Shown: piece after piece, positions 19,992-30,159 of the stretch
Numbering within the stretch: position 1 is the stretch's first letter
Layout: every line of letters begins with the position of its first letter
Assembly (NCBI GenBank): GCA_020635535.1
Contig: JACJZP010000011.1
Location: 6,780-70,779, forward strand
Length of the DNA: 64,000 bases
Direction of reading: 5' to 3'
Source of the DNA: Flavobacteriales bacterium
GTDB taxonomy: Bacteria > Bacteroidota > Bacteroidia > UBA10329
Notes under the pieces: model-generated
The model's database searches: none
Seen by the model: the letters and a program-made list of their open reading frames with translations, nothing else
Told to the model about the DNA's origin: nothing
Made by a program: the position numbers and the translations under genes

Positions 19992-21484
19992 TTGCGGTTA
20001 GTCCCATTATGGATAATCCATAACTTATGCATCCTGAAGAAAAACCGAGCAAATGAGGTTATTTCCCCTCCTTTTATTGACCCTTTTTCCGCCTTTGCTT
20101 TGGCGCAGAACTATGATGAATGGTGGCAGAAAGAAGAAGAAGACCAATACACCGAAACGGCCGCGCCGAAATCTGCGCTCGAAGTGGTGCAGAAGATCCA
20201 CGACCGCGCTGTGGAAGAGGGTAACAGTCCGCAGTTGGTGAAAGCCGTGATCCACGAGATCAAGTTCCAGTCTGAGTTTGAGGAGGAAAGTCTGGTGGCG
20301 AGCATCATCCGACTGGAAGATGAGGCCAAAACCGCGCCCGAACCCACCAAGCAGATCCTGCATTCGCTGCTGGCCGAAATGCACTGGGGCTACTACCAGA
20401 ACAACAGTTGGCAGATACACAACCGCACCGCCACCGAAGCCGCAGGAGACAACATTCTGACATGGGATTTCAAGCGCATTGCCGAAGAGGCCGACAAGCA
20501 TTACAGACTTTCGTTAGAGAACCGGGAAGTGTTGAAATCCGCTGCGCTGAAGGATTATGAGGCGATTCTGACCGGTTCGGACAAGTACCGTGAACTGCGG
20601 CCATCGCTCTATCATTTGCTGCTATCGCGGGCATTGGACTTCTACAGCTCGGAAGAGCGCGAGCTCATCAACTTCGACCCATCGGGCATTTACAACGACC
20701 CGAAACTGTTGGGTTCTGTGGATGAGTTCCTAACATGGGAAGCCCCAAAGAAAACCGGACTGCAACCCGCGGCCTACAGCATTCATCTTTATCAGGGATT
20801 GCTTCGCGAAGCCAAGAAACTCGGAACAGAAGCCTTGGTCTCCGAAGACCTGAAACGCTTGAATTTCATCTACGGCCGTTCGCAGGCGCAGGCGGCCCAC
20901 AAGGACTACACACACAGACTCCAATCGTTGGTGCAGGAACATGCTGCGGATGCCGTCTCGGGCGAGGCTGCCTACTATCTGGCGCTGCTTTACCACGACC
21001 AAGGAAGTGCTGCCTCTGACCCTTCGCATCCCGCGCGTTGGAACTGGAAAACAGCCGATTCCATCTGTCAGGTTTACATTGAGAAATTCCCGAATTCGTT
21101 GGGTGCGAGGAATTGCCAATCGCTTTCCGAACGCATCCGCATGAAGGAATGGAGTGTGGCAGCCGAGCAGCACACGCTTGCCGAAAAGCCGTTCCGATTC
21201 CTGTTCCGCTACCGCAACATTGGCGAAGCTGATGCCGCCAATTGGAAGGTTTACACGCAAGTGGCCAAACTCGACCCCATCGAATACCGCGAGAATGCCC
21301 GCAGCAACTATGGCGAAAAGCTCATCAATTGGCTGAAATCGCATTCGCAGACCGTTTCGAAAAGACCTTCGAAGTTCCCAATCCAAAAGATTTCCGCGAG
21401 CACAGCATTGAACTTCCGTTGGAAGGATTGCCCATTGGCACCTACGTCATCTTCACACGGGTTCCGATGCCAAACTTTCCATGA
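19992..21484 (+). CDS. N-terminal alpha-helical segment, probably of the alpha-2-macroglobulin-family protein (frame-broken); otherwise a separate coupled hypothetical gene
   Basis: Coding-like frame of about 480 aa. A signal peptide MRLFPLLLLTLF(S)AFALAQ is recovered if the T5 run at 20084-88 is read as T6. There is a second -1 break near 21325. An ATGA junction at 21481 leads into the MG-domain ORF. Confidence 0.5.
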
Positions 21485-23688
21485 ACAAGGATGTGGTGTC
21501 GTATGCCATCGTCACGGTCACCGATCTGGCACTTATCACCCGTTCCATCAACGATGGCGAAACGGTGCTGAAGGTCGTTTCGCGCGATAGCGGAAAACCC
21601 ATCGCGCAAGCACGCATTGAACTGCTGAGTCTGGTGTACAACCGCAATTCGCGCAGCAACGATTACAAGCTGGAGCAAACGCTGACCACCGACCAGAACG
21701 GGGTGGCAGTTTGGAAAGGTCAGGCGCAGAATTACCGTGGTTACATGGTGGATGTGTACCATGGCGAGGATAAGCTGATCGGAGCCGATAATGTTTACGG
21801 CTACAGCAACCGCGAGGACATCCGCTGGAACGACCAGACGCATTTCTTCCTCGACCGTGCCATTTACCGCCCAGGGCAGACCATCCATTTCAAGGGCATC
21901 ATGCTTTCGAGCAATGGCAAGGAGGTGAAAACGCTGACCGAAAAGAACACGACCGTAAAACTCTTTGACGCCAACGGGCAGGAAGTGAGTTCACTTGATC
22001 TGAAATCGAATGGTTTCGGGACGTTTTCGGGAACGTTCATTGCGCCAACTGGCGGACTGAACGGCTACATCCGCATTGGCAATGAGAGCGGTTCGCATTC
22101 GTTCCGCATGGAAGAATACAAGCGGCCGAAGTTTGAGGTGAAGGTTGACCAGCCAAAGGAGCAATACCGCGTGAACGACACGGTATCGGTTTCGGGAACG
22201 GCCATTTCCTATTCAGGCGTTCCGTTGGATGGTGCGGAAGTGAAATACCGCGTCACGCGCACCGCCCGTTTCCCGTATCCGTGGTTGTGCTGGGGTTGGT
22301 TCCCGCAATCGCAGCCCAAGCAAGTGGCTTTCGGAACGGCAACGACTGATGCTTCAGGTGTGTTCCAAATGGAATTCGAAGCGCAGCCCGACCCGCTAAT
22401 CAAGGCCACGTACAAGCCTGTTTTCAACTACCAGATCGAAGTGGATGTGACCGACCAAAGTGGCGAAATGCAGACGGGGAACACGAGCGTTTCGGTGGGT
22501 TACCACGCGCTGAACATCGACATTGATATTCCTTCGGTCATCGAGCGGTATGACCTAGGCCGTTATAACGTTTCGGCCACCAATCCTTCTGGCGAGCCAC
22601 AAGCAGCAGAGGTTTCGGTAGATGTTTGGAAGCTCAAGCCGAATGACCGCATACTTCGCAAGCGCATCTGGCAAACGCCCGATCAGTTCTACCTATCGGA
22701 GGCCGACCACAAGCGCATGTTCCGCAACGAACCGTACAAGAATGAGGGCGATCATCAAACATGGGAGCGCGACCGGAATATGTTCCATGCCGTGCTGCAA
22801 ACCGCCACCGATAAGGATGTGAGTTTTGCTCCGCTCAACGGCCTCGGGCAGGGTTATTACATGGTGGAACTGACCGCCAAGGACGCGTTCGGCACCGAAG
22901 TGGTGCAAAAGGCGTATTACTGCCTGACAGAGAAGGACGCGAAACTGCCACCGTACTTCACCACGGCTTGGTTCCACTCCCTCCAAGACAAATATGAGCC
23001 AGGAGAAACACTCGAACTGCTGATCGGTTCGTCTTACGCTTTTGTGGATTTCAAGATTGAAATTGAGGTCAAGGACAAAGGATTCCAGACCAACAAGATC
23101 ATTTACACCAAGGAAATCTCCTGCACGGGAACGCAGCAAAAGCTGGAGATTCCAGTAACCGAAGAATGGCGTGGAAATGCGCAGATTCATATCACTGCTG
23201 TGCGGAACAACGAACTGCTGAGTTGGTCGAAAACCATTTCGGTACCGTACACCAACAAGCAGTTGGATGTGAAGCTCGAAACCTTCCGCAAGGAAATGGC
23301 ACCCGATGATGCCGAAGAATGGACGGTCAGCATCAAAGACAAGAACGGAAAAGCCGCCAAGGCCGAATTCCTGACCACGATGTATGATGCCTCATTGGAT
23401 GTGCTGGCCGCCAACAACTGGGGGCTTTCGCCTTACCATTTCCTGAACGCGCGCTACAACTGGAATTCCAATTCATTCGGCCAAGCCCAAACCCAGATAT
23501 GGAATCGTAATTGGATGAAATATCCGAGTTCGGCCATTGCGAGGGAATTTGAAAAAATCGATTGGTTCGGATACTATTTCGGTAGTGGGAATTTCTACGC
23601 GTTGGAGAGCGTTGCGATTCGCAGTGGTGGTGCAAGAGGAACAGCTGATGATGATATGATGGCGGTTGAAGAAAGTGAGATCAAATGA
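21481..23688 (+). CDS. alpha-2-macroglobulin family protein, MG-domain portion
   Basis: MG2-type motifs HFFLDRAIYRPGQTIHFKGIM and SFRMEEYKRPKFEV, plus repeated beta-sandwich modules. Confidence 0.8.
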   Translation: MNKDVVSYAIVTVTDLALITRSINDGETVLKVVSRDSGKPIAQARIELLSLVYNRNSRSNDYKLEQTLTTDQNGVAVWKGQAQNYRGYMVDVYHGEDKLIGADNVYGYSNREDIRWNDQTHFFLDRAIYRPGQTIHFKGIMLSSNGKEVKTLTEKNTTVKLFDANGQEVSSLDLKSNGFGTFSGTFIAPTGGLNGYIRIGNESGSHSFRMEEYKRPKFEVKVDQPKEQYRVNDTVSVSGTAISYSGVPLDGAEVKYRVTRTARFPYPWLCWGWFPQSQPKQVAFGTATTDASGVFQMEFEAQPDPLIKATYKPVFNYQIEVDVTDQSGEMQTGNTSVSVGYHALNIDIDIPSVIERYDLGRYNVSATNPSGEPQAAEVSVDVWKLKPNDRILRKRIWQTPDQFYLSEADHKRMFRNEPYKNEGDHQTWERDRNMFHAVLQTATDKDVSFAPLNGLGQGYYMVELTAKDAFGTEVVQKAYYCLTEKDAKLPPYFTTAWFHSLQDKYEPGETLELLIGSSYAFVDFKIEIEVKDKGFQTNKIIYTKEISCTGTQQKLEIPVTEEWRGNAQIHITAVRNNELLSWSKTISVPYTNKQLDVKLETFRKEMAPDDAEEWTVSIKDKNGKAAKAEFLTTMYDASLDVLAANNWGLSPYHFLNARYNWNSNSFGQAQTQIWNRNWMKYPSSAIAREFEKIDWFGYYFGSGNFYALESVAIRSGGARGTADDDMMAVEESEIK

Positions 23689-23749
23689 TGATGAAGTTCA
23701 GGTTCAAAAAGCGCCCCAGCAATTATGATGATGATGCATCAGCGGACTG

Positions 23750-26146
23750 ATGGCTAAGAATGCAGAAGATGACGATCAATCTGCTCCACCTAAAGACATC
23801 AAAATGCGTTCAGATTTCTCTGAAACGGTGTTCTTCCATCCGCATTTGGTGAGCGATGAAAAGGGAAATGTCAGCTTCAAATTCAATGCACCACAATCAC
23901 TCACGCGATGGAAGTTCATGGGTCTCGCTACCACCGAAGACCTGAAGATCGGAACCATCACGGAAGAGGTCGTTACCCGCAAACAGTTGATGATAACGCC
24001 CAACTATCCGCGTTTCGTGCGGGAAGGCGATAAACTCATTTTCCAAGTAAAAGTGAACGTGTTGGATAGCTTGGTCAAGAGCGCTTCTGCTTCATTGGAA
24101 TTGACAGACGGATTAACTGGTGAGGCCATTGAATCTCAAATCGTTAATCGTCAATTGTTATTCGCTAATAATCAAGCGGTAGCTTCTTGGGAAATCGATA
24201 TTCCCGAAGGAATTTCCGCCATCAAGTTCACTACCAAAGCATGGTCAGACAAGCATTCGGATGGAGAGGAAAAAACCATTCCTGTGCTTCCGAACCGCAT
24301 GTTGGTGACTGAAAGCATGCCGCTTCCAGTCAGAGGAAAAGGCACGCACACCTTCAGTTTCGATAAGCTGTTAGGGCTTGATGCATCAAGACACAGCCAA
24401 ACGCTGCGTACACAATCGTTAACGTTGGAATTCACACCCAATCCGATCTGGCTGGCCGTGCTTTCGCTGCCGTACATGATGGAATACCCGTACGAATGTT
24501 CTGAGCAGATTTTCAGTCGCTACTACGCCAATGCCATCGGTACCCATCTGGCCAATTCCGACCCGAAGATCAAAGCGGTTTTCGAGCAATGGAAGCACGA
24601 TGCGCAGAACGGAAACGGGGATGCATTCCAATCTGAATTGGACAAGAATCCAGAACTGAAACAGGCTTTGCTGACTGAAACACCGTGGGTTCGAGATGCG
24701 CAGAACGAAACAGAACAACGCAGACGGATTGGTGAACTGTTCGATACCGACCGCATGGAAACCGAACTGCAAACGGCTCTCAAAAAACTGAAGCAGAACC
24801 AACAGCCCGATGGCGGTTGGGGCTGGTTCAACGGGCTGCGCTCCGATATGTACATCACACGTTACATCGTTTCAGGATTTGGCAAAATGCGCAAGATGGG
24901 CGTTTGGCAAATGGATGATGAAACCGAATCCATGCTTCGCGAAGCAATCGTTTTCCTCGATGAGGAAATGGTGAAATTCTACGCCCGCAGAGACCTGAAA
25001 GACAAGGATTACGTACCGAGTTGGACGGATTTGCATATGACCTACGCGCGGTCGTTCTGGTTGGATGATTTTGCGCTGAACGGCAAGGCGAAAACCACTT
25101 ACAACCTCATTGTAAAGAACATCCGCGATAAGTGGACGAAATTGGATGCTTCACAGAAAGGATTGGCGGCCGTGGTTCTGAAGCGTTCTGGATTTGAGGA
25201 TGACGCGAAAAAGGTCATCGTCTCGCTGCGCGAAACGGCACTAACAAGCGAGGAATTCGGCACGTATTGGGCCATGGACAAGGGCTATTACTGGTATCAG
25301 GCACCAATTGAAAACCACGTGATGATCTTGGAGGCGTTTGATGAGGTGGCCAATGATGCGGAAATGGTCCGCGAGATGAACATCTGGTTGCTCAAACAGA
25401 AACAGACGCAAAGTTGGGAAACCACCAAGGCCACGGCCGAAGCGTGCTACGCGCTGATCTCAACTGGCAACACCGACTTTGAAACTGAAGCGAAAGTTTC
25501 CATCAAGTTGGGTAATGAAACCATTGACCCACGCAAAGACCCAGACCTTAAGACCGAAGCCGGAACGGGTTACTTCAAGACCAATTGGACGAAGAATTCC
25601 GTGTACTCCGATATGGGAAATGTCACCGTGACCAAAGACAACGATGGCGTAGCATGGGGCGCGGTTTACTGGCAGTATTTCGAGGACTTGGATAAGATCA
25701 CAGGCGCTACCGACAATCCGATAAAAATGCAGCGGGAAGTCATGCTGTTGGAAGACACGGAGAACGGCCCTGTGATGAAACCGTTGGGAGAGAACACCTC
25801 ACTTTCTGTTGGCGACAGAGTTCGCGTTCGCATCGTTCTGGAAACCGACCGCCACATGGAATATGTGCATCTGAAAGACATGCGCGCTGCCAGTTTCGAA
25901 CCACGCAAGCAACTTTCTGGGGTAGAATTCCAAGAAGGGTTGAGCTACTACCGTTCGACTACTGATGCGGCCATGAACTTCTTCTTCAGCTACCTGCCCA
26001 AAGGCACGTTCGTGTTTGAGTACGACCTGAACGTAACCCAATCAGGCACCTTCAGCAACGGTATTTCCCAACTGCAATGCATGTACGTGCCTGAGTTTAC
26101 AACGCACTCTGAGGGAGTGAGGTTGGAGGTCAGAAGGAAACAATGA
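23750..26146 (+). CDS. alpha-2-macroglobulin family protein, bait/thioester-like/receptor-binding portion
   Basis: RSDFSETVFFHP...LTRWKF motif (A2M bait-region boundary). YPYECSEQ, the thioester-motif position with Ser in place of Gly. C-terminal A2M_recep-like region. Separated from the previous ORF by a frame break inside a GATGAT-repeat stretch. Confidence 0.8.
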   Translation: MAKNAEDDDQSAPPKDIKMRSDFSETVFFHPHLVSDEKGNVSFKFNAPQSLTRWKFMGLATTEDLKIGTITEEVVTRKQLMITPNYPRFVREGDKLIFQVKVNVLDSLVKSASASLELTDGLTGEAIESQIVNRQLLFANNQAVASWEIDIPEGISAIKFTTKAWSDKHSDGEEKTIPVLPNRMLVTESMPLPVRGKGTHTFSFDKLLGLDASRHSQTLRTQSLTLEFTPNPIWLAVLSLPYMMEYPYECSEQIFSRYYANAIGTHLANSDPKIKAVFEQWKHDAQNGNGDAFQSELDKNPELKQALLTETPWVRDAQNETEQRRRIGELFDTDRMETELQTALKKLKQNQQPDGGWGWFNGLRSDMYITRYIVSGFGKMRKMGVWQMDDETESMLREAIVFLDEEMVKFYARRDLKDKDYVPSWTDLHMTYARSFWLDDFALNGKAKTTYNLIVKNIRDKWTKLDASQKGLAAVVLKRSGFEDDAKKVIVSLRETALTSEEFGTYWAMDKGYYWYQAPIENHVMILEAFDEVANDAEMVREMNIWLLKQKQTQSWETTKATAEACYALISTGNTDFETEAKVSIKLGNETIDPRKDPDLKTEAGTGYFKTNWTKNSVYSDMGNVTVTKDNDGVAWGAVYWQYFEDLDKITGATDNPIKMQREVMLLEDTENGPVMKPLGENTSLSVGDRVRVRIVLETDRHMEYVHLKDMRAASFEPRKQLSGVEFQEGLSYYRSTTDAAMNFFFSYLPKGTFVFEYDLNVTQSGTFSNGISQLQCMYVPEFTTHSEGVRLEVRRKQ

Positions 26147-26198: not shown

Positions 26199-26206
26199 TA
26201 AATTTG
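26199..26206 (+). promoter_or_regulatory. candidate Bacteroidota -7 promoter element (TAnnTTTG) for the lytS-lytTR operon
   Basis: TAAATTTG lies 26 nt upstream of the ATG at 26232. Confidence 0.3.
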
Positions 26207-26231: not shown

Positions 26232-26948
26232 ATGGATTTTCAGAACGTTGACCATCTACAGATCCTTTTGGTATTAGCGTTTGCACTTGCTGTTTGGTCT
26301 TATTTCAGCATGAAGAAGGAGCGAAAAAAAAGCGCGCGTCTACATGACGAAAACGCGCAGCTTTTAGCTCAAAACGCTATTCTCGAAGCTGAGCAATTGA
26401 AATTCCAGCTGCAACCACACACCCTGAATAATATTCTTGCTAATCTGAAGGCTGTTGCTTCGAAACTACACAGAGGAATGGATGCTCTCTCAGAAACACT
26501 CGAATACATCATTTATAAAGGCAAGGGACATTTGGTAACTGTTGAGGACGAACTTGTTTTTATACAGAGATACCTCATTTTGAACGAGCTGTTCTTAACT
26601 CACATGGACTCCATCAAATTAGACGACACACGGGTGAATGCGAACAGCGAATTTTACCGAAAACCATGTCTGCCTCACCTTGTCACGGGCTATCTCCTTG
26701 AGAACGCATTCAAACATGGTGATACACGTGACCCAAATTTCTTGTCGATTAGTGTGTGTCTAAGCGACCGGGTTTTTGAGCTTCAGGTCTCGAATAAAGT
26801 ACGGTCGGGGCACAGTAATCGCAACGGTGGTATTGGACTACAGAACATGAGAAAGCGATTAGACCTACTTGCCTCTGGCAGCTACGAGCTAAATCACCAA
26901 CAGACCGATTCGGAATACATTTCGACCCTGACAGTGAAATTGAAATGA
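26232..26948 (+). CDS. LytS/YehU-type sensor histidine kinase (His_kinase PF06580-like + HATPase), single TM helix, no extracytoplasmic domain
   Basis: QLQPHTLNNILANL H-box typical of LytS-family kinases, N/G boxes LENAFKHG...NGGIGLQNMRKRLDL, and one N-terminal TM segment. Confidence 0.8.
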   Translation: MDFQNVDHLQILLVLAFALAVWSYFSMKKERKKSARLHDENAQLLAQNAILEAEQLKFQLQPHTLNNILANLKAVASKLHRGMDALSETLEYIIYKGKGHLVTVEDELVFIQRYLILNELFLTHMDSIKLDDTRVNANSEFYRKPCLPHLVTGYLLENAFKHGDTRDPNFLSISVCLSDRVFELQVSNKVRSGHSNRNGGIGLQNMRKRLDLLASGSYELNHQQTDSEYISTLTVKLK

Positions 26949-27703
26949 GCAAATTGAAAGTTGCCGTTCTGGAAGATAGCCCGCTTCTACTTGAAGAGTT
27001 GCGGTATATGCTACGTGATACAAACCTTGTTGATGTAGTAGTTTGTAGTCAGAGTTGCGAGGAATTCATTCAGAAGGTTAAACAGACCAAGGTTGACGCG
27101 CTGATATTGGACATAGACATTGCGGGCGACAACATGAGCGGAATGGATGTAGCCTATCACTTAAAGTTACCTGTACTTTTCGCAAGCGGTAAGACCAAGG
27201 ACAATCTGGAAGGTATTGAAGATTTGACCTTAGAGGAATGGAGCATTGTTGAACACCTTACCAAACCAATAAAGAAGGAAAAACTCGAACGAATGCTTCC
27301 ACAGTTCATTGAACAAGTGCAAGCCAAGGCTCGTAAAAGTGTTGTCAGTCTGAGTCTGAAAGATGGCCGAACATTCGTTGTTCCGATGAATAGTGTTGCA
27401 TACATCTGCTCTTGCACAGGAAGTGACGGTCGGTCCTTGAATAAAGAAATTCATTTTGTAGACAGAAAACCTGGAATATTGGTTGATGTTTCCTTTCCTA
27501 AACTGGAATCTATCGGCTTCACCAGCACCCAGTTTATACGTCCTCATCAATCATACCGCGTGAACGTAGACCACGTGATGGAATACAATCGCCTCTATCA
27601 TAAACTTATTGTCTCTTCATTAAGCTCAGAAGGAAAGACTGTGCAATCCGAAATAGATGTTTCAGAAAACTACCGCTCAGAAATTAAGCAGAAGTTCAGG
27701 TAG
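26945..27703 (+). CDS. LytTR-family response regulator (REC + LytTR DNA-binding domain)
   Basis: VAVLEDS...ILDIDI receiver domain. C-terminal FIRPHQSYRVNVDHV is the LytTR signature (cf. FIRIHRSYIVN). ATGA-coupled to the kinase. Confidence 0.85.
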   Translation: MSKLKVAVLEDSPLLLEELRYMLRDTNLVDVVVCSQSCEEFIQKVKQTKVDALILDIDIAGDNMSGMDVAYHLKLPVLFASGKTKDNLEGIEDLTLEEWSIVEHLTKPIKKEKLERMLPQFIEQVQAKARKSVVSLSLKDGRTFVVPMNSVAYICSCTGSDGRSLNKEIHFVDRKPGILVDVSFPKLESIGFTSTQFIRPHQSYRVNVDHVMEYNRLYHKLIVSSLSSEGKTVQSEIDVSENYRSEIKQKFR

Positions 27704-27757
27704 GCACTTGTCACTCAAAACAAGGCACTTGTCACTCTGATGGGGATGATGTCACCC
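27702..27757 (+). promoter_or_regulatory. three direct repeats (AGGCACTTGTCACTC x2 plus degenerate ATGTCACCC) at 21/20-bp phasing; candidate LytTR operator upstream of the viperin gene
   Basis: Perfect 15-nt repeat at 27702-16 and 27723-37, with a third half-site at 27749-57. The 21-bp periodicity matches LytTR/AgrA-type direct-repeat sites. Confidence 0.4.
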
Positions 27758-27813
27758 GCAATTAGGTAACCTTTACCGACACTGGGACATTCGTTGAAAC
27801 AAAACTCAACGAT

Positions 27814-29205
27814 ATGATTCCATCAGTCAATTTTCACCTCTGGCAGCCCTGCAACATGGCCTGCAAATTCTGCTTCGCTCGCTTTGAGGATGTAAAGCGT
27901 AAGTTCAACCTTCCGAAAGGTCACCTCCCTGAGGAGGACGCCTTGGCCGTGGTCGATGAGCTGGCCGACATCGGCTTCGAGAAAATCACGTTCGCAGGCG
28001 GTGAACCAACGCTCTGCCCGTGGTTGGACAAGCTGATCGTCCGTGCAAAGGAGCGTGGCATGACCACCATGATTGTAACGAACGGGAGCCGTTTGGACGA
28101 ATCTACGCTACTCCAGTTCAAACCCCATCTCGATTGGATAGCCCTCAGCATCGACAGTCTTGATGCAGAGACAAATGCCCAATCTGGCCGAGTACTGAAA
28201 AGTTCGGGCGGCTCTCCCGATTACTTCAAGCTTGTGGATGCTATCAAGGCACATGGCTTTGGGCTGAAGATCAACACGGTCGTCCATAGCCTCAACATGG
28301 ACGAGTCCATGCACGAATTCATTCGACATGCGCGGCCAAAGCGATGGAAGCTGTTCCAAGTGCTTCCCATCGATGGGCAGAACAATGGAGCTGTCGAGCC
28401 GCTGCTCATCTCGTCAGAGCAATTTCTGGGGTTTGTTGACCGCCATGCCGACCTCAACGGAGTGACGGAGGTGATTCCGGAGACCAATGATGACATGCGT
28501 GGTTCCTATGCGATGGTGGATCCCTCCGGACGATTCTATGATAATGTGGATGGCCACCACCACTACAGCCGCCCAATCCTTGAACTCGGGGCCAGACTTG
28601 CTATTCAACAGATGCGCTATGATTTCAAGAAGTTCCTTGGAAGAAAGGGGCAATATGACTGGGTCATTGACCGCAGGGTGCCGGCTCGCATCACTCTGTC
28701 GGGCGAGGTGGCCTCGGGCAAGAGCAGTGTCGGCAGAAAACTGGCAGAGCGGCTAAAGTATCAGTTCTTTTCCATCGGAGACAAAACGAGGGAGTTGGCC
28801 GCAAAGGAGGGAATGAACATCGTTGAGTTCCAGCGGAGATGCCAATTGGATCCCTCGATGGACAGACAGATCGATTCCAAATTTTCAGAGGACTGCAATA
28901 GTCGCAATGGCCTGGTAGTGGATTACCGTCTTGGATTCCGATTCGTCCGCAATGCCTTCCATGTGTTCCTAAAAGTCTCACAGGAAAAGGCCATTGAAAG
29001 GCTGAACGGGGCCAAACGTGCCGGTGAGACGAGTGCTACCGTGAAGGAACGTAACGACTCTTTCAAGTGTCAGTTCATCAATGCCTATGGCGTAGACTAC
29101 ACAGCAGAGAAACACTATAATCTTGTACTCGATGCGGATGACTCCACTGTGGATGAACTCGTGAATCGGATACTTGAACAATTTAACCCAATTCCTAATC
29201 AATAA
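27814..29205 (+). CDS. prokaryotic viperin (radical-SAM, ddhNTP synthase-like) fused to a C-terminal cytidylate-kinase-like P-loop NMP kinase domain
   Basis: N-terminal NFHLWQPCNMACKFCF (CxxxCxxC), GGEPTL, and viperin-specific blocks (LSIDSLDAETN, GLKINTVVHSLNMDESMHEFIRHARPKRWKLFQVLPIDGQN, IPETNDDMRGSYAMVD, FLGRKGQYDW) that track human viperin. The last ~175 aa, RITLSGEVASGKSSVGRKLAERLKYQFFSIGD..., resemble Cmk/cytidylate_kin2. Confidence 0.85.
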   Translation: MIPSVNFHLWQPCNMACKFCFARFEDVKRKFNLPKGHLPEEDALAVVDELADIGFEKITFAGGEPTLCPWLDKLIVRAKERGMTTMIVTNGSRLDESTLLQFKPHLDWIALSIDSLDAETNAQSGRVLKSSGGSPDYFKLVDAIKAHGFGLKINTVVHSLNMDESMHEFIRHARPKRWKLFQVLPIDGQNNGAVEPLLISSEQFLGFVDRHADLNGVTEVIPETNDDMRGSYAMVDPSGRFYDNVDGHHHYSRPILELGARLAIQQMRYDFKKFLGRKGQYDWVIDRRVPARITLSGEVASGKSSVGRKLAERLKYQFFSIGDKTRELAAKEGMNIVEFQRRCQLDPSMDRQIDSKFSEDCNSRNGLVVDYRLGFRFVRNAFHVFLKVSQEKAIERLNGAKRAGETSATVKERNDSFKCQFINAYGVDYTAEKHYNLVLDADDSTVDELVNRILEQFNPIPNQ

Positions 29206-29221
29206 CCGACAAACACTCATC

Positions 29222-29947
29222 ATGAAAACACGAACCTTCTCAAATCGAACCATGAAATACGGAAATCGCCCTACGATTACTCCAGACCCATTGCTTGTTA
29301 GTAAAGCACTTGCCGTTTCGAATCGGCCAACTGGAATTAACAACTTCGTTGTCATTGCACGCTACAAATGGTTGGTAGCAAATGGGGCGATCTACCCCAA
29401 GCGCATGGAAAAGCCCAACCTATTCATAACCATAAATGATGGTATGGTGGAAGATTGTAAGTTCAGCTGTGTGTTTGGAAGAACGCTCCAAAAGCAGAGC
29501 TTCCATATTGAGGTTCTCAATGGTCCGTCAGAGACAAGTAGCGCGACTAAAGAAAATCTTATCCTTAGTAGAGACCTAGGACTGGCCAACCTATGCAACA
29601 TGGCTCTTGATGAATTCCGTGAAAGGGACATCATCCAACCTGTGTTCCCTCTGGATTTCAACACTTACGCTGATGACAGCTGCAACCTAAGTCTGAAGAC
29701 CCGTCCTTCAGACAAGGCTGTTCTGGAAATTCTTCGAGAAGCAGATGTGAACCATTGGGACAAGAACCTCATCATCATCGCCAGACAACGCTGGTTGAAG
29801 GAACAAGGGATTAAGATTCCGACTCAAACTGGAAACCTGAATCTGTTGGTCAAGATTGTCAACGGCCATTTGACCAGCTGCTTCTACAGTCCTGATATGA
29901 TGAACATCATAAGAAAACAGAACTACTTCATTCAAATCCTGAATTGA
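29222..29947 (+). CDS. hypothetical protein with two tandem homologous ~110-aa repeats (unknown function)
   Basis: Starts 16 nt after the viperin-kinase stop. The internal duplication is visible by eye (NNFVVIARYKWLVANG...LFITINDGMVEDCKFS versus KNLIIIARQRWLKEQG...LLVKIVNGHLTSCFYS). Confidence 0.5.
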   Translation: MKTRTFSNRTMKYGNRPTITPDPLLVSKALAVSNRPTGINNFVVIARYKWLVANGAIYPKRMEKPNLFITINDGMVEDCKFSCVFGRTLQKQSFHIEVLNGPSETSSATKENLILSRDLGLANLCNMALDEFRERDIIQPVFPLDFNTYADDSCNLSLKTRPSDKAVLEILREADVNHWDKNLIIIARQRWLKEQGIKIPTQTGNLNLLVKIVNGHLTSCFYSPDMMNIIRKQNYFIQILN

Positions 29948-30027
29948 CTTATTGGGCGAGGAGACCCAAAAACGCGGTAGCCAAAAAGCGTGCAACGAGT
30001 AGGCATAAACCCCAAAATCTTACAGCG

Positions 30028-30159
30028 ATGTCAAAAGGCAAATCTGGAAGTAGCAAAGGATTCCCTGGATGGCCAAGTACAACCGGGAAGCCATCCGGGT
30101 CTGGTAGGGCAAATGGCACTCCGACACCGAAACCCGCTTCTTCTACATCGAAGAAGTGA
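30028..30159 (+). CDS. 43-aa Gly/Ser/Lys/Pro/Thr-rich small ORF (predicted disordered, basic)
   Basis: MSKGKSGSSKGFPGWPSTTGKPSGSGRANGTPTPKPASSTSKK, followed 10 nt later by a strong terminator hairpin. Confidence 0.3.
   Translation: MSKGKSGSSKGFPGWPSTTGKPSGSGRANGTPTPKPASSTSKK

Follow-up and report, generated by a model that had tools for sequence, protein, structure and literature searches.

A LytTR two-component pair and a conserved candidate control region ahead of a viperin-kinase gene in Bacteroidota

Bacterial defence genes are for the most part regarded as stand-alone units with constitutive expression, and the manner in which they are switched on is largely an open question. In animals, viperin (RSAD2) and CMPK2 are interferon-induced via JAK-STAT/IRF. 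Here, a prokaryotic viperin (pVip) gene is described that is preceded by what appears to be its own two-component pair. The gene lies in a 64,000-nucleotide stretch of contig JACJZP010000011.1 from a Flavobacteriales bacterium (the window) and encodes a viperin-kinase fusion. Directly upstream and on the same strand are the genes for a membrane histidine kinase and for a response regulator with receiver (REC) and LytTR domains. Comparison of related loci suggests that expression of this viperin is probably signal-induced and not constant. As in animals, a viperin is found together with a CMP-kinase-like enzyme, and induction by a signal is predicted, but the signalling machinery is unrelated, so that the likeness to the induction of RSAD2 and CMPK2 is a functional analogy only.

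The closest described arrangements are the AgrC-AgrA and ComD-ComE systems of the Firmicutes, which likewise combine a membrane kinase with a REC-LytTR regulator. The fold of the regulator in the window is nearest to that of ComE, and its predicted sites, like those of AgrA and other LytTR regulators, are direct repeats spaced about 21 bp apart just upstream of the equivalent of the -35 element. In contrast to these systems, the kinase described here possesses a single transmembrane (TM) segment without a multi-TM peptide-sensing domain, the locus includes no pheromone gene, three boxes are present rather than two, and the pair is not predicted to activate its own expression. Its predicted cargo promoter is also of the Bacteroidetes -33/-7 type, and the target is a viperin instead of a bacteriocin, competence or virulence locus. 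The LytS-LytR and YehU-YehT systems share the PF06580 H-box, a LytTR partner and, judged by the modelled fold, a compact catalytic domain with the pair in the window. However, this kinase lacks a 5TM, GAF or periplasmic domain, and its form of about 235 amino acids (aa) is conserved in well over 100 sequence clusters.

Anti-phage loci that contain a kinase and receivers are also known. Detocs comprises a kinase, a buffer receiver and a further receiver joined to the effector enzyme, and it involves no transcription step. Assignment of the pair in the window to Detocs was rejected because neither the kinase nor the regulator matches a PADLOC model, the output domain is DNA-binding and there is no second receiver gene. 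Ambrosia likewise contains a kinase and a receiver in an anti-phage locus and provides a precedent for two-component-controlled defence, its DNA-binding regulator having been proposed to control effector gene expression (bioRxiv 10.1101/2025.09.30.679545). It differs from the present locus in its winged helix-turn-helix (wHTH) regulator, its XRE protein, its restriction-modification-like effectors and its occurrence in Gammaproteobacteria. The HdrRM and BrsRM LytTR systems consist of a receiver-less regulator and a membrane inhibitor and are autoregulated by repeats upstream (PMC6193735). An identity of this type was also rejected, as the locus in the window has a receiver domain and a kinase, and boxes are absent upstream of its kinase gene.

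Compared with the stand-alone pVips of PADLOC and DefenseFinder, the cargo in the window is a typical pVip-kinase fusion, and the link with a nucleotide kinase is known for viperins. The clade to which it belongs (at least 51% identity) is set apart by a dedicated two-component pair and a cis-regulatory platform. The viperin literature searched describes no pVip with any regulator. Full-text searches, which left most subscription papers outside their reach, returned nothing relevant on pVips with response regulators or on LytTR with anti-phage defence, and no full text joining viperin with LytTR. In a broad survey of viperin evolution, the words 'regulat', 'two-component' and 'histidine kinase' are absent. 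The view, taken in a first-pass annotation of the window, that the arrangement is undescribed agrees with these negative results within the same limits.

The two-component pair and its viperin cargo

The locus consists of four genes:

26232-26948, + strand: histidine kinase gene, 238 aa (Pfam PF06580; open reading frame (ORF) table)
26945-27703, + strand: REC-LytTR response regulator gene, 252 aa (Pfam; ORF table)
27814-29205, + strand: viperin-kinase fusion gene, the cargo, 463 aa (PADLOC pVip-kinase; Pfam)
29222-29947, + strand: second cargo ORF, 241 aa, with two repeats (match to the c3 profile; counterpart in locus L003)

The kinase and regulator genes share an ATGA overlap, which can be read directly in the sequence, and the gap between the regulator and viperin genes comprises 110 nt (27704-27813). 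In the window, the module is placed between an alpha-2-macroglobulin (A2M) gene and a thiolase gene. The same coordinates were recovered as in the first-pass annotation, which had described a 238-aa kinase with one TM helix, ATGA-coupled to a REC-LytTR regulator that ends 110 nt before the viperin-kinase gene. Its description of the kinase as LytS-family stands in part. The protein is a PF06580-type kinase (His_kinase, 38.4 bits against a cut-off of 25.2), but the multi-TM sensor domain of LytS is absent, and it is not a LytS orthologue.

Within the kinase, the QLQPHTLNN box is present, and His63, in LKFQLQPHTL, is invariant in an alignment of 53 relatives. Residues E157/N158 of the N box and G200/G202 of the G2 box are likewise invariant over the 53 members. 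A search of PDB sequences yielded no useful match to either the kinase or the LytTR domain, and structure prediction with fold search was used in its place. The AlphaFold model of the kinase (pLDDT 86.5) consists of one unbroken helix from residue 6 to 57, followed by the DHp pair and an alpha/beta catalytic domain. This first helix forms the TM segment and a coiled coil that runs directly into the DHp helix bearing His63. At most 8 residues precede the TM segment in the model, which contains no extracytoplasmic domain, no sensor domain and no 5TM N-terminus of the LytS type. The best matches among solved structures are the kinases GanS, AgrC, DesK and BceS. A database search yielded 334 relatives, the best 120 of which are 45-99% identical to the kinase and span 212-248 aa. 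Because nearly all of these listed relatives are about 235 aa long, the minimal architecture is a family trait.

The regulator possesses a REC domain (PF00072, 39.8 bits, above the cut-off) and a LytTR domain (PF04397, 27.6 bits against a cut-off of 22.6). Its phospho-acceptor pocket is conserved, with E10, D11, D56 and K107 invariant and S81 found in at least 90% of the family alignment. The best PDB match of the regulator model (pLDDT 86.9) is full-length ComE (4cbv, E 8e-12).

The third gene matches the PADLOC pVip-kinase model with an E-value of 6.8e-169 and encodes the Pfam domains Radical_SAM and Cytidylate_kin2. Its translation retains the viperin CxxxCxxC motif, as CNMACKFC, and the P-loop, as GEVASGKS, both intact. 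Viperins paired with nucleotide kinases are recognised as an antiviral combination (bioRxiv 10.1101/2023.09.13.557418). The 241-aa protein encoded by the second cargo gene has no Pfam or PADLOC match. It is, however, matched in two stretches (E 1.7e-4) by the profile of c3, a protein of about 100 aa that follows pVip in many related loci, and it is a distant, tandemly duplicated c3 relative. It shares 77% identity with its positional counterpart in L003, the closest relative of the locus, and its gene is probably co-transcribed with the viperin gene.

Recurrence across Bacteroidota

A scan of the genome collection with the single regulator sequence found no relatives. A search with the regulator yielded 21 sequence clusters. 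When an alignment of 21 sequences was used to scan genome and metagenome collections, relatives were found. Context look-ups and alignment scans together supplied about 80 loci, in which ORFs were called, proteins were clustered and the cargo was classified anew. The 75 complete regulators fell into 57 clusters at 90% identity, 54 of them informative and 3 at contig ends. The first gene after the regulator was distributed as follows:

pVip, pVip-kinase or pVip-TauD: about 41 clusters (37 scripted and 4 classed by hand, namely L012, L019/L062, L020 and L052)
TauD-like dioxygenase: 4 clusters
small proteins c3, c6: 7 clusters
other: 2 clusters
contig end: 3 clusters

The order kinase, regulator and pVip on the same strand is thus found in about 41 of the 54 informative regulator lineages. 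Two look-ups that started from kinase relatives gave an identical gene order, and in one of them the module is inserted between rplT and infB. All of the named records with the module are from Bacteroidota and include Flavobacteriales, Crocinitomicaceae, Fluviicola, Saprospiraceae, Cytophagales, Sphingobacteriales and Draconibacterium. In most loci, 108-128 nt separate the stop codon of the regulator gene from the ATG of the cargo, the spacer ahead of pVip being about 115 nt, and the window pVip is 51-96% identical to the pVips behind related regulators.

The upstream neighbours, on the other hand, vary in every lineage and include HicAB, a MORN protein, proline dehydrogenase, rplT and others. 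In L003, whose pVip domain is 96% identical to that of the window, HicAB lies upstream. Among the loci compared, A2M precedes the module only in the window. No kinase or regulator gene was present within 4 kb of 17 more distant pVips (38-44% identity, on viral contigs). Because the gene order is conserved, the upstream flanks are unrelated and the distant pVips lack the pair, the two-component pair travels with the cargo position in one clade of Bacteroidota pVips (at least 51% identity). Two points raised by the first-pass annotation are settled in its favour by this comparison. The order of kinase, LytTR regulator and pVip does recur elsewhere, in several Bacteroidota orders, and the pair does not co-vary with the A2M gene, from which it is separated in every locus but the window.

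These data also bear on whether the adjacency is incidental, with an ordinary LytTR two-component system standing beside a stand-alone, constitutive pVip. In favour of this, PF06580/LytTR pairs are very abundant in Bacteroidota genomes. However, order, strand, spacer length and cis-elements are conserved over dozens of lineages with unrelated flanks. Since the order recurs in dozens of independent loci, the adjacency is not due to chance, and an incidental placement is effectively refuted by the recurrence. The breadth of conservation of the circuit is enough to imply function.

The candidate control region between regulator and cargo

The gap between the regulator and the viperin gene contains the following elements, for which positions relative to the start of transcription refer to a predicted start:

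27703-27716, + strand: box 1, GGCACTTGTCACTC, distal candidate site, at roughly -95 to -82
27724-27737, + strand: box 2, GGCACTTGTCACTC, middle candidate site, a repeat of box 1
27744-27757, + strand: box 3, GGATGATGTCACCC, proximal degenerate candidate site, ending 3 bp before the -33 region
27760-27766, + strand: (T/A)ATTAG motif, here AATTAGG, at the -33 position of the putative cargo promoter
27786-27793, + strand: -7-like box, GACATTCG, 19 nt downstream of AATTAGG
27788-27816, + strand: predicted hairpin, with the 5' arm at 27788-27797, the loop at 27798-27805 and the 3' arm at 27806-27812

Boxes 1 and 2 are identical over 15 nt with a spacing of 21 bp, and AGGCACTTGTCACTC occurs twice in the gap exactly 21 bp apart. 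The core of box 3, TGTCAC, follows the core of box 2 by 20 bp. The 14-mer box has no further exact copy in the window. In 40 loci, the intergenic regions align from stop codon to ATG with a common layout: box 1 (CCGCTTTCATTACTC), AAAA, box 2, about 6 nt, box 3, TATTAG, about 20 nt, nACATTTG and a hairpin that ends in the ATG. The box consensus of these loci is ccgcTTTCATTaCTC, with the cores 21 bp apart. A test independent of any position matrix looked for a 12-mer that recurs at 20-22 bp, and 35 of 61 loci scored above 95% of random windows taken from the same locus. The boxes also change in concert with the regulator. All three cores are TGTCAC in the window and TGTTAC in L003, and more distant members carry repeats of AATTCGGTA or ATTCTGCAA with unchanged spacing.

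Known LytTR sites consist of direct repeats with 11-13 bp, in most cases 12, between them, a few bp upstream of the -35 element (PMC6193735; PMC4227749). The candidate boxes follow this layout, and the regulator is predicted to bind them. Three such repeats ahead of a Bacteroidetes-type promoter, conserved over the family, are the strongest evidence for the inducible expression proposed in the first-pass annotation, where they went unnoticed. A matrix scan found no regulator boxes upstream of the kinase gene, and therefore no autoregulation is predicted.

The Bacteroidetes sigmaA consensus consists of TTTG at -33 and TAnnTTTG at -7 (PMC6847099), and the -7 box spans -12 to -5 in mapped flavobacterial promoters (PMC9723704). 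In the 40 aligned loci, the T, T, A and G columns of the -33 motif are at least 90% conserved, and the -7-like box is the most conserved block of the alignment, with the family consensus nACATTTG compared with TAnnTTTG for sigmaA. If GACATTCG is taken as the -7 box, transcription is predicted to start near 27798. Counted from this position, ATTAGG falls near -37 to -32 and the cores of the boxes near -46, -66 and -87, a geometry that fits an activator. Activation is proposed rather than repression. A sigma70 scan gave 4 promoter-like sites compared with 5.5 expected, although the sigma70 model is not applicable to Bacteroidota. The same sigma70/terminator scan found no terminator in the gap, and Rfam found no family between the regulator and pVip genes. 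Upstream of the pair, one further element was noted:

26199-26206, + strand: TAAATTTG, a -7 box of the TAnnTTTG type, 26 nt upstream of the kinase ATG

This element is a weak candidate for the promoter of the kinase-regulator pair, as just 8 of 31 related loci have a strict TAnnTTTG ahead of the kinase gene.

The 3' arm of the hairpin ends one base before the ATG, and CAT at 27788-27790 pairs with the pVip ATG at 27814-27816. The 5' arm falls within the -7 box region, at -10 to -1 from the predicted start. For the window, RNAfold predicts -9.4 kcal/mol with a z-score of -2.6. The same hairpin is predicted in most of 45 loci, with a median z-score of -2.05 and 23 loci below -2. In a fixed, rigid register, 67% of cells are paired compared with 39-46% when the register is slid, and the covariation score was reached by 4 of 500 shuffles. 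The stems differ by lineage (GCTT/AAGC, GTGT/ACAC, GCGT/ACGC and CTTCGGC/GCCGAAG), and a compensatory change, TTGA/TCAA to TTGG/CCAA, distinguishes the window from L003. In Flavobacterium, secondary structure at the start codon lowers translation initiation (PMC6847099). Two other roles were considered for this element. That of an intrinsic terminator of the kinase-regulator operon was rejected, as the stem is AT-rich, lacks a U-tract and ends in a start codon. That of an operator for an XRE/HTH protein is unlikely, since the inverted repeat is present where there is no HTH gene, including the window, and its arms covary.

The repeats might instead be scars of recombination or cassette exchange, the regulator acting on genes elsewhere. 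Such an origin would account for the variation of the cargo past the repeats next to a conserved two-component pair. However, the conserved block extends through the promoter and hairpin to the cargo ATG, which places the junction of any exchange at the start codon and not at the repeats. The phasing of about 21 bp, the place just upstream of the -33 element and the concerted core change between the window and L003 fit protein recognition. In addition, clustered matrix hits are confined to this gap, and those elsewhere in the window and the other loci are isolated. An origin of the repeats as scars is thus highly improbable.

A proposed circuit and its cargo variants

On the evidence of the conserved layout, it is likely that the regulator activates the viperin operon via the three candidate boxes. 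The module would be a self-contained, horizontally mobile unit in which the overlapping kinase and regulator genes are probably expressed constitutively. Upon a cue, the membrane-anchored, sensorless kinase would phosphorylate Asp56 of the regulator. The phosphorylated regulator would then bind the three direct repeats, which lie on the same face of the DNA at a spacing of about 21 bp and directly upstream of a weak -33 element, and would activate the Bacteroidetes sigmaA-type promoter to express the viperin-kinase and the c3-like gene. The viperin would make chain-terminating ddh-nucleotides from the nucleoside triphosphate substrate supplied by the fused kinase.

The hairpin may add a second level of control. 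An mRNA started at the promoter would be without the 5' arm and would possess an open, A-rich leader of 16 nt. Read-through RNA from the regulator gene would keep the 5' arm, fold and pair its AUG, and so would not be translated. A fail-safe role of this kind is moderately supported by the sequence comparisons. If true, the -7 box would double as an anti-start-codon arm, and only transcripts from the activated promoter would be translated. A specific viperin circuit can thereby be named, consisting of a predicted sensor, regulator, binding sites and promoter and a possible anti-leak device. This circuit would provide a handle on what the sensorless membrane kinase detects, possibly during phage attack.

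Several points weigh against this account, the whole case for which is made by comparative sequence analysis. In the kinase, position 188 is an invariant Asn in the family alignment where the Asp of the G1 box is expected, Pfam HATPase_c was undetected, and ATP binding is assumed from the modelled fold. The lack of a sensor domain also means that the protein gives no hint of the signal. In the window, the -7 box has TTCG rather than TTTG and is without the leading T, and the -33 motif differs from the canonical TTTG. With the position matrix, 149 of 515 hits fell within 100 nt after the regulator stop codon, which represents 0.7% of the scanned DNA, but as the matrix was built from the same sites, the enrichment is in part circular. 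This problem does not affect the repeat test or the concerted changes of the boxes. Support for the hairpin is moderate, given a median z-score of about -2, a score reached by 4 of 500 shuffles and a register that varies by lineage, and its complementarity could act at the DNA level instead. Lastly, about one quarter of the regulator lineages carry non-pVip cargo, and the pair is therefore dedicated to the cassette position rather than to viperin itself. These non-viperin cargos are preceded by the same control region, with both the -7 box and the hairpin.

What the activated module responds to, and for what purpose, can be read in more than one way. One possibility, put forward tentatively, is that it is a portable Bacteroidota platform that senses infection at the membrane and, with a fail-safe at the start codon, switches interchangeable immune cargo. 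This cargo would comprise pVip, pVip-kinase, pVip-TauD, TauD with a UCP032817-like protein, and a cassette of c3, c6, HTH and Ig-like proteins. For the circuit set out above, the preferred guess is a signal that arises when phage entry perturbs the membrane or envelope. The first-pass annotation had suggested a membrane or intracellular cue such as envelope stress or infection. If such a platform exists, it would be a bacterial counterpart of the signal-induced viperin and CMPK2, and the non-viperin cargos would be new defence effectors. The swappable cargo flags the TauD and UCP032817-like pair, the c3 family and the c6/HTH/Ig-like cassette as candidate effectors.

The same wiring could possibly, although this too is doubtful, serve a non-phage cue, with the kinase reporting the overall physiological condition of the cell, be it membrane fluidity, temperature, envelope stress or the phase of growth, as part of a condition-dependent programme. 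The kinase has just a TM helix and a coiled coil, its model matches include DesK, a membrane-state sensor, and BceS, and the module is often found among housekeeping genes and not in defence islands, for instance between rplT and infB. In the window, A2M and thiolase genes flank it. However, the cargo is defence-typed, with NYN-LOTUS, MkoA or DarT/Macro genes added in some loci, and slow environmental variables offer no obvious reason for a tight anti-leak hairpin.

It is unlikely that the cassette is a regulated modified-nucleotide pathway for competition, signalling or self-imposed growth arrest instead of immunity. The shared control region does drive TauD-like and UCP032817-like genes with or without pVip, and one pVip-TauD fusion occurs, which suggests that a nucleotide product is tailored further. 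LytTR regulators also typically control bacteriocin and competence loci (PMC6193735). However, the loci have no exporter, immunity gene or precursor peptide as a consistent feature, the radical SAM protein strongly matches the PADLOC pVip-kinase model (E 6.8e-169), and its combination with a nucleotide kinase is a recognised antiviral one (bioRxiv 10.1101/2023.09.13.557418).

The cargo of individual loci is varied. TauD-like and UCP032817-like genes occur without pVip in L011 (2859-4054), L022 (1557-2751) and L024 (865-2073), and TauD occurs alone behind the two-component control region in L025 (6510-7160). In L004 (4106-5412), the TauD and UCP032817-like pair follows the pVip-kinase. In L060 (6502-8671), a pVip-TauD fusion is followed by the UCP gene, and in L038 (7885-8376) pVip is followed by the UCP gene only. 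The TauD and UCP genes may encode a nucleotide-tailoring step or an alternative effector. A viperin-free cassette is found in L001 (7880-9425), L021 (6878-8455), L057 (6878-8830), L077 (7308-8333) and L023 (6889-8295). It is composed of c3, c6, an XRE/HTH_3 protein (HTH_VI/capH-like in PADLOC) and an Ig-like SpaA/SdrD_B or PEGA protein.

Additional genes also accompany pVip. A NYN ribonuclease with an OST-HTH/LOTUS domain overlaps the end of the pVip-kinase gene in L019 (3655-4458), L047 (2459-3196), L062 (2306-3115) and L067 (8264-9076), and a shorter NYN-LOTUS relative follows a pVip without the kinase fusion in L065 (3627-4193). The NYN-LOTUS protein may act as an additional effector. In L007 (2202-5528), the gene directly after pVip encodes a Mokosh MkoA helicase (E 6e-130), and a DarT/Macro pair is located downstream of the module in L004 (7875-9484). 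PADLOC has no model for the c3, c6, TauD-like, UCP or NYN-LOTUS proteins.

Identity between the window and L003 is uneven, being 96% for the pVip domain, 87% for the fused kinase domain, 78-79% for the histidine kinase, 77% for the second cargo and 68% for the regulator. Either the viperin is far more constrained than its regulators or it was recently exchanged. The GC content is 42-44% in the kinase and regulator genes, 49-54% in the viperin gene and about 50% in A2M and the genes after the cassette. This contrast suggests that the regulatory pair and the cargo are of separate origin or that the pair was recently acquired.

The bacterial alpha-2-macroglobulin gene upstream of the module (19992-26146, + strand) is divided into three consecutive ORFs (19992-21590, 21481-23688 and 23750-26146), which together hold the Pfam MG2, bait-region, A2M and bMG10 domains. 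The split could stem from an error in the assembly or mark the gene as a frameshifted pseudogene. Just after the cassette, a DUF805b RNA motif (RF02914) is located at 29971-30005 (+ strand), with 34.6 bits compared with a gathering score of 35.6. It is followed by an ORF at 30028-30159 (+ strand) that encodes 43 aa rich in Gly, Ser and Lys. In L053 (3078-3110, 43.9 bits) and in L003 (4523-4557, 28.8 bits), the motif again precedes a small ORF, 'c7', of about 45 aa and rich in Lys, Asn and Gly.

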